Part shown: positions 7,286-11,416 of the stretch, one piece after another
How positions within the stretch are numbered: position 1 is the first letter of the stretch
How the letters are laid out: the number at the start of each line of letters is the position of its first letter
Assembly (NCBI GenBank): GCA_003651045.1
Contig: QMTJ01000001.1
Location: 1-29,892 of the forward strand
From: Thermoplasmata archaeon
GTDB taxonomy: Archaea > Thermoplasmatota > E2 > DHVEG-1
Length of the DNA stretch: 29,892 nt
Direction: 5' to 3'
The notes under the pieces: model-generated
Seen by the model: only the letters and a program-made list of their open reading frames with translations
Told to the model about the DNA's origin: nothing
Databases searched by the model: none
Translations under genes and position numbers: made by a program

Positions 7286-8623
7286 CTAAAACGTTTTAAG
7301 CGTCTCGTCTAATATTTCAAGGATTTTATCGATTTCTTGAGATGATATAATAAGAGGTGGTCTGAATCTAAGTGTTTTTTCACCGCATCCTAGTATTACT
7401 AAACCATTAGCATATAATTTGTTTTTTAACTCATCTCTTCTCTTAGGATTAGGGAGATCAAAAGCGCACATAAGACCGCGCCCGCGAACATTAGATATTA
7501 TATTAGGATATTTATCACCTAACCTTGTAAGTTCCTCTAATAAATGTTTACCTTGTACTTCTGCGTTTTTAACAAGTTTTTCTTCCTTGATTACTTCGAG
7601 ATATTTCTGGCATCTAACCATGTCAACAAGGTTTCCACCCCATGTAGAGTTAATACGGCTTGAAACCTTGAAAACATTATCTTTTACTTCATCAACACGT
7701 GAAGTAACCATGATCCCGCATACTTGTGCTTTTTTACCGAAAGCTATTATATCTGGTTTAAAATCAAAATGTTCATAAGCCCACATTTTACCTGTGAGTC
7801 CTACACCTGTTTGTACTTCATCAAGTATAAACATGATCTCATGCTCATCACAGAGTCTACGTAGTTCATGGAAAAACTCTTTACGGAAATGATTATCCCC
7901 GCCTTCACCCTGTATTGGCTCTATTATAAGAGCCGCTATATCATCAGGGTTATCAGATACTGCTTTTTCAATCTCAGATACAGCTTGTTTCTCTAAATTT
8001 TGAACCTTTCTAAGGTTTTTTTCGTTTAATGGAAACGTGATTTTTGGGTTAGTAACCCTTGGCCATTTAAATTTTGGGAAATATTTTGTTTTATCAAGAT
8101 TGAATGTATTAGTCATAGAAAGGGTATACCCTGTCCGTCCATGGAATGCTTCTTTAAAATGTATAACTTGGTTACCTAACTCTTGTTTTTTACCGTTTTC
8201 AAAGTTTTTACGTATTTTCCAGTCAAAAGCTGTTTTCAGACCGTTTTCTACAGCTAATGCACCACCACTTACGAAAAACAGGTGTTTAAAATAACTGGGG
8301 ACAGCATGTTTCACGAAACTATCGACGAATTCTGCCATTTCAACAGTGTATACATCTGAGTTAGTTGGTTTATTCACTGCTACTTCACCGATTTTTTTTA
8401 TAAACTCAGGGTTTGATAGTTTCGGGTGGTTGCATCCTAATGGCGCTGAGGCAAAAAAGGAGAAACAATCGAGTAAATATTTATTATGACGTGAGTCATA
8501 TATTTTACATCCCTTACTTTTTTTTAAATCCAGAACGAGGTCGAAACCATCTACAAGTATGTATCTGGATAATGTTGCATGGACGTTTTTTGGTTGAACT
8601 GTCATGATTTTTTGTTCCTCCAT
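7286..8623 (-). CDS. lat: L-lysine 6-transaminase (class III PLP aminotransferase)
   Basis: ILVDGFDLVLDL, AFHGRTGYTLS, QGEGGD, DEVQTGVG..GKKAQVCG (PLP Lys) and RINSTWGGN, as in actinobacterial Lat. The probable start is ATG at 8605, after SD GGAGG. Confidence 0.92.
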   Translation of the reverse strand: MEEQKIMTVQPKNVHATLSRYILVDGFDLVLDLKKSKGCKIYDSRHNKYLLDCFSFFASAPLGCNHPKLSNPEFIKKIGEVAVNKPTNSDVYTVEMAEFVDSFVKHAVPSYFKHLFFVSGGALAVENGLKTAFDWKIRKNFENGKKQELGNQVIHFKEAFHGRTGYTLSMTNTFNLDKTKYFPKFKWPRVTNPKITFPLNEKNLRKVQNLEKQAVSEIEKAVSDNPDDIAALIIEPIQGEGGDNHFRKEFFHELRRLCDEHEIMFILDEVQTGVGLTGKMWAYEHFDFKPDIIAFGKKAQVCGIMVTSRVDEVKDNVFKVSSRINSTWGGNLVDMVRCQKYLEVIKEEKLVKNAEVQGKHLLEELTRLGDKYPNIISNVRGRGLMCAFDLPNPKRRDELKNKLYANGLVILGCGEKTLRFRPPLIISSQEIDKILEILDETLKTF

Positions 8624-8708
8624 TTTTTTTAGAAAACTAAGAAAATGTATCTTTAGTTAAAGCGGTATCTCTATTTTTTATAAAATGGTATCGGTATAGC
8701 TTCTTTTT

Positions 8709-10034
8709 TTAGATAATCTTGGTTTTTTCGTTAAACCTTATGTTCAGTTTTTCTAACTCATCAAGTATCGGGTTGTATATCTCAGGTATAACCGGGATAT
8801 GTACACCTATAGGTTTTATGTCTCCTTGTAGAATCATTTTCACAGCTATAGCGGCTGGTAGTGCAACAGTTCGTGCAACAGCAGTGTCACCACCTGGTAC
8901 ACCATAGTCAAGTAGAGTAGATGTTATGTATTCTTTTTTGTTGTTGTATTCTGCTATGAACTCATGATGCATGATTACCATGTCTCTATCGTTTTTACTT
9001 AGAGACATTTTTTTAAGCATGAGCAGTGTGAGATAATCTAAGGGGTTATCCGCGTTTTCAGGTAAGGGTTCGTCGCTGAATAAACCAAGCCATTCAAGTC
9101 GTTTTATAATTGCAGAATACGTTTTTAGATTAAGGAATCTCGCTGTTTCCTCTATGGTATTATCTCCCTGTGTTTTGATTAAATGTTTTGTCATTTCACC
9201 ATAGGTTCTACCAGAGAAACTTTTTAAGGGTTTATCGTTCAACCACCCAAGTGCTGCTATGCTTCTCATGGTTTCACACCATCCTACCATTCTAAATGTC
9301 CCTCTGTAAACGGTTTTTGCATCCTTAAGACCGTATATCTCCTTGTATGGTAGAGAATCCCTGTTAGGGTAGTTTTCAAACGATCCAACATCAGGGACAT
9401 CCTGGATGATGTAGTGCTCAAAAAGTTTTTCACCAGGGATTGAAATCGTTTCTCCGTTTTCCAACCATTTTGCTGCATTACGTGAAGCGAGTAAAACACC
9501 ACGGGGTGACCACGAGAACTTGTAACCAAAAGGGTTATTGTTTGAGTCATGAGCAGGTAATGCACCAGTTGTTGATTTAAAACTTATAATTTTTCCACTT
9601 TTTGATTCAACCTCGTGTATAACACGCATCGCTGACATGTGATCTATACCTGGATCAAGACCGCATTCATTTAATAACAAAACACCGGTGTCTTTTGCTT
9701 CTCCATCTAAATCTTTCATCTCTTTACTAACATATGAAGTAGTAACGAGATGCTTCCCATGTTTTATACATTGTTTTGCAACTTTAACATGATAAATATA
9801 AGGTAACAGACTAACAGCAACATCGTGATCCTTTACAAGTTTTTTTAACAGAACATCATCATCTTCTATATTAAAACTAACTGCTTCACCACGTGGATGG
9901 TTGTTTATTATTTTTTCTGCTTTACTAACTGTTCTACTAGCCATAGTTACATGAACACCTGTTTGATCTAGAAGATATCTAACTAGTGGTTTAGAAACCA
10001 TACCAGCGCCAAGAACCAATACTTTTTTTACCAT
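8709..10034 (-). CDS. Saccharopine dehydrogenase (glutamate-forming; Lys9/AASS C-terminal type)
   Basis: Rossmann VLVLGAGMV, NECGLDPGIDHMSAM, NPFGYKFSWSPRGVL, and C-terminal AVARTVALPAAIA. Confidence 0.93.
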   Translation of the reverse strand: MVKKVLVLGAGMVSKPLVRYLLDQTGVHVTMASRTVSKAEKIINNHPRGEAVSFNIEDDDVLLKKLVKDHDVAVSLLPYIYHVKVAKQCIKHGKHLVTTSYVSKEMKDLDGEAKDTGVLLLNECGLDPGIDHMSAMRVIHEVESKSGKIISFKSTTGALPAHDSNNNPFGYKFSWSPRGVLLASRNAAKWLENGETISIPGEKLFEHYIIQDVPDVGSFENYPNRDSLPYKEIYGLKDAKTVYRGTFRMVGWCETMRSIAALGWLNDKPLKSFSGRTYGEMTKHLIKTQGDNTIEETARFLNLKTYSAIIKRLEWLGLFSDEPLPENADNPLDYLTLLMLKKMSLSKNDRDMVIMHHEFIAEYNNKKEYITSTLLDYGVPGGDTAVARTVALPAAIAVKMILQGDIKPIGVHIPVIPEIYNPILDELEKLNIRFNEKTKII

Positions 10035-10117
10035 AACCTATTCTTCAACTCCTTTCAACAAAAATTTTTTTTAGATACAATAAAACAATCATGGTAGACA
10101 CCGGAAAAGAAACAAAC

Positions 10118-11416
10118 CTATAAAAATCTACTCATATATTGATAGGATGAAGTAAGTTTTCCATGAAGGAGTATCAATGCTTTTTTAATCTCAATAGGTA
10201 AATCTATGTTTTCAAAATCAACAGAGTAATCAGCTTTAACAATATCTGGGATGAAACGTAAAAGTGTTTCACTGAAACTCTGTGAAGACTCACGTGGTAG
10301 CTCACAGGGTAAATTGTCAACAGCCACAACTGCAACACCGTCACCCTTGTAACTATCTATGATTTCATCCCTAACGGGGTCGTAAACAAAAACTGGATTA
10401 TCAGGTGTCGTTGTTTTCTCTGTGAACTCAATAGCACCGTTTATATCTACACTGATATCACCTACAACTTGTAGTTTCATCTTATTAGAAAAATTTTTTT
10501 TCAAAAAACTTTTAGTAAAAAGACGAGGGTATTTCTCCTCCCAGTAAATACAGTTCATAAGGATAGAGAGAAAAGGAATATATTGATGAAAAACTGATTC
10601 ATATAACCGTGGGTTATTATAGTACTCCTGAAGATCAAAACTTGTAGTGTTTGAAACACGTTTAACCATGTGTTCTTCTTTGAAAACTACTTTGTATATA
10701 ACATTATCAGAGTAACCCCTGTGGATGTTTTCAAGCTCATCAGGTTTGATTTCTTCTACAGGTAAAACATCAAGTATTTCTTGTGCACCTTTTGACACGT
10801 TACCGTAACCTGCAAAACCTACAACTATTGGTGCTATATCTTGAGGTATACCTTTTTTTTCAATTTCTTCTTTTACTTTTTTTAAATGGTTTTTTATTTC
10901 ATTAAGACCTGTATAATATATAGTTTGTTTAACCTGGGTAAACGGGTTTTCTATGCCTTTCCATTTAAGCCTCTGACCGAAAACCCATAGTGTATCAACC
11001 ATACCAGCGAGACCAGCGTAACGTCCGAAGAAAACTAATCGTCGACCATGTTCATCAACTATTTTTTCATAATCAATTAGGTTACAACCTAGTTCCATCA
11101 TTTTTTTCAACATAGGCATATTATATTTCTGCCCTTTGATTGTATGGGAGAAAAACACATAGGTTTTACCTGGTTTAAAAAAATCAATTGGTATTTCTTT
11201 AACAGCAAAAACAACATTAGCAGGGGATAAATCTTCACTTACTGTTGCTCCTGCTTTTTTGTATTCTTCATCTGTGAATACTCTAATTTTTGAAGGTTGA
11301 ATTATTGTTTCTATCCCGTGTTTTTCTTTTAAAATTTTTACATGCTCTGGGGTTATCGGTACGCGTCTCTCCCAACGGTTTTTATCTTCTCTACGTATGC
11401 CAAGTTTGAAACTCAT
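10118..11416 (-). CDS. Lysine-ketoglutarate reductase (AASS N-terminal LKR domain; AlaDH/PNT fold)
   Basis: GIRREDKNRWERRVP, AVKE, FFSHTIKGQ, LIDYEKIVD..GRRLVFFG..AG, GDISVDINGAIEF and AVDNLPCELP closely follow the LKR domain of eukaryotic AASS. Confidence 0.9.
   Translation of the reverse strand: MSFKLGIRREDKNRWERRVPITPEHVKILKEKHGIETIIQPSKIRVFTDEEYKKAGATVSEDLSPANVVFAVKEIPIDFFKPGKTYVFFSHTIKGQKYNMPMLKKMMELGCNLIDYEKIVDEHGRRLVFFGRYAGLAGMVDTLWVFGQRLKWKGIENPFTQVKQTIYYTGLNEIKNHLKKVKEEIEKKGIPQDIAPIVVGFAGYGNVSKGAQEILDVLPVEEIKPDELENIHRGYSDNVIYKVVFKEEHMVKRVSNTTSFDLQEYYNNPRLYESVFHQYIPFLSILMNCIYWEEKYPRLFTKSFLKKNFSNKMKLQVVGDISVDINGAIEFTEKTTTPDNPVFVYDPVRDEIIDSYKGDGVAVVAVDNLPCELPRESSQSFSETLLRFIPDIVKADYSVDFENIDLPIEIKKALILLHGKLTSSYQYMSRFL

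Follow-up and report, generated by a model that had tools for sequence, protein, structure and literature searches.

The saccharopine pathway has been described in several gene arrangements, with which an archaeal locus can now be compared. In eukaryotic AASS, a lysine-ketoglutarate reductase (LKR) domain precedes a saccharopine dehydrogenase (SDH) domain in one fused protein, and in fungi the two activities belong to the monofunctional enzymes Lys1 and Lys9, whose genes are not known to be adjacent. In bacteria, lkr and sdh remain separate genes; sdh follows immediately behind lkr in the same orientation, and the two encode an LKR of about 430 aa and an SDH of about 440 aa. Such contiguous bacterial genes were reported in 2012 (Serrano et al., FEBS Lett), the pathway of Silicibacter/Ruegeria pomeroyi is associated with that paper and with Neshich et al. 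2013 (ISME J; citations in PMC9490328, PMC7253579 and PMC4334477), and the lkr of R. pomeroyi is listed as functionally verified (PMC4334477). Here we analyse a stretch of 29,892 nucleotides (hereafter the window; contig QMTJ01000001.1, positions 1 to 29,892) from an uncultured Thermoplasmatota archaeon whose assembly comprises 1.40 Mb in 247 contigs and is 84% complete. Within it, unfused lkr and sdh genes are followed on the same, minus strand by lat, a gene for L-lysine 6-transaminase (Lat), as a preliminary description of the locus had noted. With moderate confidence, we read lkr-sdh and lat as a lysine catabolic entry in a lysine-auxotrophic peptide fermenter, where we infer both the direction of the reactions and the steps downstream.

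Domain content, matches to solved structures and a family-level score indicate that the three genes are real and correctly named, which bears out their initial identification. The lkr gene (10118..11416, minus strand) encodes a monofunctional AASS-type lysine-ketoglutarate reductase (saccharopine dehydrogenase, L-lysine-forming type) of 432 aa, with AlaDh_PNT_N (PF05222) and AlaDh_PNT_C (PF01262) domains. Its residues 5-429 are collinear with residues 26-463 of the human AASS LKR/LOR domain (8dda, E 9e-81) and it is only distantly related to yeast Lys1 (E 4e-16), so it belongs to the long AASS type and not to the short Lys1 type. R18, K73, H91 and R126, all invariant or nearly so among 42 prokaryotic homologues, align to R18, K77, H96 and R131 of yeast Lys1, of which we take K77 and H96 to be the catalytic Lys/His pair and R18 and R131 to be carboxylate-binding arginines.

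The sdh gene (8709..10034, minus strand) encodes a saccharopine dehydrogenase/reductase (L-glutamate-forming; Lys9 / AASS-SDH type) of 441 aa with Sacchrp_dh_NADP (PF03435, 89 bits) and Sacchrp_dh_C (PF16653, 276 bits) domains. Its best solved relative is the M. grisea saccharopine reductase (1e5l, E 2e-93, over residues 2-437), and it matches yeast Lys9 (2axq, E 3e-88) and the human AASS SDH domain (5l78, E 2e-77) over the full length. By bit score it is most similar to Lys9-type enzymes (317 and 300, against 264 for AASS). The motifs TTSYVS and GLDPGIDH are identical to those of the fungal enzyme and R225, R244 and R248 are kept; R225 and R248 align to M. grisea R224 and R247, which, together with the two motifs, we assume to be substrate-site features.

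The lat gene (7286..8623, minus strand) encodes a class III, pyridoxal phosphate (PLP)-dependent enzyme of 445 aa when taken as the longest open reading frame (ORF). It scores 677.3 bits against TIGR03251 (L-lysine 6-transaminase; equivalog cut-off 520.8) and matches M. tuberculosis Lat (2cin) at E 9e-137. As in the L-lysine epsilon-aminotransferases of M. tuberculosis, Streptomyces and Flavobacterium, the DEVQTG motif and the PLP lysine are present, the latter in AFGKK, which aligns to Mtb K300. Unlike in those bacteria, the host is an archaeon and the gene has no partner dehydrogenase (pcd) for Δ1-piperideine-6-carboxylate (P6C). The second ATG of the longest ORF, at 8605, is preceded by GGAGGA at a distance of 10 nt, and relatives become alignable only at residue 4-8 of that ORF, which starts at 8623; the true start is probably 8605.

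These identities bear on a concern raised in the preliminary description, that the enzymes might act on a different opine or on a polyamine, for example in a carboxynorspermidine-type reaction. The Sacchrp_dh fold does also house carboxynorspermidine dehydrogenases. However, the full-length matches are to lysine and saccharopine enzymes (E 1e-77 to 1e-93), with the CANSDH-like 4ina reaching only 1e-5, the residues that serve catalysis and carboxylate binding in Lys1 and Lys9 are kept, and a bona fide Lat adjoins. We regard a different substrate as extremely improbable.

The split between LKR and SDH, and the LKR-then-SDH order, are genuine, as was first proposed. The two are separate polypeptides, divided by a stop codon and a spacer of 83 nt (10035..10117, minus strand), and the starts of lkr and sdh lie 1382 nt apart, so that their frames differ. 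Read from the sequence, the spacer holds a T-rich tract, an A/T-rich box and a separate Shine-Dalgarno sequence, AAAGGAG, upstream of the sdh ATG. A further spacer, of 85 nt, separates SDH from Lat.

Each half aligns collinearly with its counterpart domain in AASS, and the order of the two is that of the fused protein, which had suggested a possible pre-fusion relative of AASS. The genes differ from AASS in being unfused, in having no interdomain linker, and in the cofactor determinants of both halves. An exhaustive profile-free search yielded 711 clusters at E <1e-30. Trees of the LKR domain and of concatenated LKR and SDH were built with FastTree and with a mixture (site-heterogeneous) model. 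The trees split, with support of 100, into a fused clade and a prokaryotic clade of separate genes. Those members of the fused clade that were looked up are eukaryotes (Andalucia, Pigoraptor, Choanoeca, Rhodelphis); the eukaryotic proteins form a clade of their own, and LKR comes first in 39 of 40 fused representatives. The family of the window forms a clade of 12 (support 99-100). FastTree suggested that archaea are polyphyletic and nested in bacteria, and the site-heterogeneous tree left the prokaryotic backbone without resolution. Approximately unbiased (AU) tests (LG+G4, 44 rows) rejected neither a topology with eukaryotes and the window's Thermoplasmatota clade on one side of a branch (p 0.515) nor the monophyly of all nine archaeal rows (p 0.573). 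The whole prokaryotic family, on this evidence, consists of unfused relatives of AASS, with a specific archaeal tie neither supported nor rejected. What stands of the pre-fusion proposal is thus an unfused relationship outside a distinct eukaryotic clade, and the special archaeal link is favoured neither way. Because the backbone is open and the AU tests reject neither topology, we dropped the naming of an AASS donor from phylogeny.

Three further cases touch on the fusion. The pair of Candidatus Hodarchaeum mangrovi is tentatively placed among bacterial and archaeal sequences, away from eukaryotes. A 925-aa LKR-SDH fusion from bacterium ADurb.Bin374 (OQA08434.1; P0252 / P0272), a metagenome-assembled genome (MAG), falls within the prokaryotic clade and is a fusion independent of eukaryotic AASS. 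Basal to the fused clade, the P0207 group is made up of monofunctional genes with eukaryote-like neighbours on their contigs and is uninformative on the donor.

The preliminary description took the pair to be an unusual archaeal trait, a view that the wider distribution does not sustain. When one genome per prokaryotic species was scanned with a pattern, relatives turned up in at least 492 genomes, and the best 80 loci were taken for comparison. Besides Thermoplasmatota and a single Candidatus Hodarchaeum mangrovi MAG, these 80 represent more than 15 bacterial phyla, with Anaerolineae, Zixibacteria, Cloacimonadota, Aminicenantes, Bipolaricaulota, Bacteroidales, Eubacteriales and Planctomycetes among the bacterial carriers. 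The gene order is also consistent: in 73 of the 80 loci, lkr is immediately followed by a co-oriented sdh, and the contigs of the other seven stop just after lkr. The two genes are unfused in every locus of this set that shows both (73/73). The lkr-sdh pair is a widespread prokaryotic two-gene module, already described in bacteria, and the archaeal case is a modest extension of it. What sets the Thermoplasmatota loci apart from the bacterial ones among these best 80 is that they alone have a true Lat (69-76% identity) linked to lkr-sdh. Clustering of 848 neighbour ORFs from the 80 loci found no conserved neighbour beyond lkr and sdh; small recurrent groups comprise hrcA-grpE-dnaK-dnaJ, cysS, Memo and Cas4-like genes. 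In about eight bacterial loci (Eubacteriales and Saccharicenans; e.g. L062, L071, L096, L110), lkr-sdh has hrcA-grpE-dnaK-dnaJ as a neighbour, together with an adjoining cysS or Memo-like gene, a neighbourhood that could reflect a link to stress or chance. The Asgard (Hodarchaeales) MAG carries its unfused pair at 7001-9782 of JAEOUE010000236.1.

The distribution in archaeal genomes, which the preliminary description had proposed to survey, is broad and uneven. LKR occurs in 22 of the 24 genera and 47 of the 53 genomes of the host family and in several other Thermoplasmatota families (19/24 of one, for example), and was not found in three large families (0/48, 0/36 and 0/58). Relatives keep the gene order aRF1-like gene, lkr, sdh, an optional insert, lat, GlyRS and CBS. 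At 56-70% identity across the host family, lkr is old there; a recent transfer from bacterial operons, the origin that would have spoken against the initial interpretation, lacks support. Lat is present in all 24 host-family genomes and in 6 of 8 of the sister family, including genomes in which LKR was not found, and it stands without lkr and sdh in G003, G015 and most of the sister family. Lat is therefore an older and more general resident of the lineage than lkr-sdh, and the two routes are not obligately coupled. The initial picture of a dual-entry cluster holds in that Lat is syntenic with the pair, and needs loosening in that the interval between sdh and lat in relatives often contains 0.6-4.2 kb of unrelated genes, such as those for a beta-propeller protein or an M14 peptidase, and in that Lat also occurs without lkr.

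On the catabolic reading, the three genes would offer two parallel ways to move the epsilon-amino group of lysine onto 2-oxoglutarate. LKR would convert lysine and 2-oxoglutarate to saccharopine, and SDH would convert saccharopine to 2-aminoadipate 6-semialdehyde (in equilibrium with P6C) and glutamate, the same net conversion that Lat would carry out in one PLP-dependent step. Unlike Lat, the saccharopine branch may also shift reducing equivalents between the NAD and NADP pools, as its cofactor signatures suggest. Because the lineage is without a semialdehyde dehydrogenase of the aldehyde dehydrogenase (ALDH) type, the semialdehyde would most likely be oxidised by a tungsten-type aldehyde:ferredoxin oxidoreductase (AOR). 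The resulting 2-aminoadipate would then be transaminated and handed on to a 2-oxoacid:ferredoxin oxidoreductase and to acyl-CoA enzymes, the course that archaea follow in fermenting other amino acids.

Several lines of evidence argue for this catabolic role. First, the window also holds an amino-acid permease, a formiminotransferase-cyclodeaminase, a formate-tetrahydrofolate (THF) ligase and amidohydrolases. Second, LKR and Lat are vertically conserved at the frequencies given above and their synteny is kept. Third, a bacterial homologue has been tied experimentally to lysine catabolism (PMC4334477). Fourth, another entry into lysine fermentation is not apparent: the KamA family occurs in only 1-2 of the 24 family genomes, and aminomutase lysine fermentation, together with a 3-aminoadipate lead, was set aside for that reason. 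Published genomics of Thermoprofundales describes peptide fermentation with Por/Vor/Kor/Ior and Aor (PMC6461988), and the main genome papers on this group that we searched do not mention the place of lysine in it. The locus would give lysine such a place and extends a known bacterial module to abundant sediment archaea.

The next enzyme had been sought among ALDH7/pcd, AOR and Δ1-pyrroline-5-carboxylate (P5C) reductase, and of these AOR was recovered, in all 24 family genomes and in two copies in the genome of the window (C17:5394 and C142:686). The lack of a P6C dehydrogenase in the window was confirmed and extends further, as no aldehyde dehydrogenase domain (PF00171) was found in the window or in its 84%-complete assembly. 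PF00171 was likewise not found in 13 of the 24 family genomes, among them the single-contig G008 and four whose completeness is 90% or more (G004, G014, G019 and G021). One relative, G016, does have an ALDH, which is of a generic or betaine-aldehyde type and not ALDH7-like. On these grounds an ALDH7-type dehydrogenase was rejected as the next step. The lineage differs here from bacteria, whose pathway is described with an aminoadipate-semialdehyde dehydrogenase (AASADH). For the later steps, the genome encodes acyl-CoA dehydrogenases with EtfAB, an AbfD-like protein and acyl-CoA synthetases; a glutaryl-CoA dehydrogenase was sought among the three acyl-CoA dehydrogenases and discarded, none reaching the equivalog cut-off. 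Should a tungsten AOR indeed remove the toxic aminoadipate semialdehyde, this would be a new link in lysine catabolism.

A pipecolate-forming role, also raised at first, was abandoned. The P5C reductase dimer domain (PF14748, ProC) was not found in the genome of the window or in four of five of its best relatives, and the search for OCD/mu-crystallin (PF02423) gave only sub-threshold Rossmann matches. The same searches bear on a proposal made for bacteria and plants, by which lysine would be turned through P6C into pipecolate, or into aminoadipate, as a compatible solute. The literature does link the saccharopine pathway to osmotic stress (PMC7253579, PMC4334477), some bacterial loci lie beside the heat-shock operon, and some carriers come from saline sites. 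Yet neither reductase that would yield pipecolate was recovered in most of the genomes searched, and the assembly holds no ALDH for making aminoadipate, so that we judge an osmolyte or stress role to be very unlikely.

Lysine supply was examined as the counterpart of catabolism. DHDPS was not found in the genome of the window or in five of its best relatives, LysA in none of the 24 family genomes (0/24), DapF in none of five genomes, comprising the window's own and its best relatives (0/5), and a LysX-type (RimK) ATP-grasp enzyme was not found in the own genome and four relatives. Of five genomes searched for an HMGL-type condensing enzyme, three (the own genome, G002 and G019) gave none, and G008 and G024 have one. 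A HacAB/LeuCD-like dehydratase pair and an AksF-like beta-decarboxylating dehydrogenase are present (G000, C25:2000-3758 and C3:2034-3155; L123, L121), which leaves the own genome with a partial 2-oxoacid elongation set in which no HMGL-type condensing enzyme was detected. Since the hallmarks of the DAP and LysW routes of lysine biosynthesis were not found in the genomes searched, the family looks lysine-auxotrophic, which fits a peptide scavenger and counts against a biosynthetic role fed from central metabolism; lysine biosynthesis of that kind was accordingly dropped as the leading interpretation.

The cofactor signatures of the two enzymes complicate the choice of direction. In human LOR, NADPH specificity has been assigned to Ser266/Arg267, at the place of the ribose-binding Asp of the NAD-dependent yeast Lys1 (PMC9490328). 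These determinants are absent from the LKR of the window, which has K246 and E247 at the two positions. The Glu is near-invariant in 60 prokaryotic pairs, whereas eukaryotes mostly have Ser, Ala or Arg. In SDH, the motif at the end of beta2 is ASRT, to be compared with ACRT in the NADPH-dependent fungal Lys9 and GSDM in the NAD-dependent human domain; ASRT is also near-invariant in the prokaryotic pairs, and its Arg is missing from the eukaryotic fused proteins. The prokaryotic pairs would hence combine an NAD-type LKR with an NADP-type SDH, as fungi do and contrary to AASS, a prediction based on one or two residues per enzyme. The likeness to the fungal enzymes includes the acidic residue at the LKR ribose site, the xRT motif common to SDH and Lys9, and monofunctionality. 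A swap of cofactors between the prokaryotic pairs and AASS could mark a change of direction that accompanied gene fusion.

These fungal-type signatures keep in play the fungal direction and a redox cycle through Lat, SDH and LKR. As a general proposition, it is rather unlikely that prokaryotic lkr-sdh pairs, this archaeal one among them, work in the manner of fungi, or shuttle redox equivalents jointly with Lat, and do not serve AASS-like catabolism; in this Thermoplasmatota family, where neither hallmarks of the DAP or LysW routes nor a semialdehyde dehydrogenase came to light in the genomes searched, the pair could then be the end of an undescribed lysine-forming or salvage route fed by ferredoxin-dependent aldehyde chemistry. 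In the first form of this idea, SDH (with NADPH) and LKR (with NAD+) would run from aminoadipate semialdehyde through saccharopine to lysine, at the end of a salvage route or of an unrecognised biosynthetic one. The semialdehyde could arise when an AOR reduces the acid aminoadipate at the expense of ferredoxin, or it could be drawn from P6C or pipecolate that the cell scavenges. Both cofactor signatures and their near-invariance speak for it, as do the higher score of SDH against Lys9 than against AASS, the failure to find DHDPS, LysA, DapF and LysX in the family genomes searched, the presence of the HacAB/LeuCD-like pair and AksF-like dehydrogenase, and the occurrence of AOR in every family genome. 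Against it stand several points: unlike in the fungal aminoadipate pathway, searches of the own genome, G002 and G019 gave no enzyme of the homocitrate-synthase type, and no aminoadipate reductase was identified in the lineage; Lat, which is syntenic, has a catabolic role in every system studied; a peptide scavenger may well be auxotrophic; and the cofactor prediction hangs on so few residues. We hold this direction to be unlikely.

In the second form, Lat would run forward while SDH and LKR work in reverse and restore lysine and 2-oxoglutarate, with a net exchange of NADPH + NAD+ for NADP+ + NADH, or the reverse, so that the three enzymes would act as a soluble transhydrogenase. The stoichiometry closes, the predicted difference in cofactor between LKR and SDH is what such a cycle needs, and the three genes occur together in 22 of the 24 genera. 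However, Lat stands without lkr and sdh in the genomes named above, and nearly all bacterial lkr-sdh loci are without a nearby Lat, so the pair has a function of its own; cyclisation to P6C and the toxicity of the aldehyde would also make a standing cycle costly. Its probability seems to us as low as that of the osmolyte role.

Lysine catabolism remains the interpretation that we favour, and several observations weigh against it. The own genome and many LKR-bearing relatives at least 90% complete lack an ALDH, and where an ALDH is present it is not ALDH7-like. The part given to AOR is conjectural, and the AOR paralogues do not track the presence of LKR. No acyl-CoA dehydrogenase reaches the cut-off for glutaryl-CoA dehydrogenase. 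In their cofactor signatures the two enzymes follow the biosynthetic enzymes of fungi and not catabolic AASS (PMC9490328). Lastly, the bacterial pair lies among housekeeping genes (hrcA-grpE-dnaK-dnaJ, cysS) and not in catabolic operons.

The remainder of the window identifies the host and gives some context. Because it encodes archaeal information-processing proteins (ABCE1, RPA and an aRF1-like protein) and its nearest named homologues come from Thermoplasmatales/Thermoplasmatota MAGs (e.g. SG8-52-4), the host is archaeal. From those homologues it may be assigned to an MBG-D/Thermoprofundales-type sediment lineage. Positions 18887-25475 form an amino-acid catabolism neighbourhood, with genes for an amino-acid permease fused to a PTS EIIA-like domain (18887-20758, minus strand), an amidohydrolase (20817-22040, minus strand), a formiminotransferase-cyclodeaminase (22103-23764) and a formate-THF ligase (23808-25475), and looks like the end of histidine degradation.

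Genes for secreted proteins around lat vary within the lineage. The window has one for a PKD/CarboxypepD_reg protein (5733-7130, minus strand), and relatives have, between sdh and lat, a 646-aa beta-propeller protein (L044, 9816-11756) or a 773-aa M14 carboxypeptidase (L055, 9920-12241). On the other side of the cluster, a 650-nt gap (11417-12064) between lkr and the aRF1-like gene holds an ORF of 154 aa (11568-12032, plus strand) with no family match. Since the distance from the aRF1-like gene to lkr is only about 30-60 nt in relatives, this ORF may be spurious or a local insertion.

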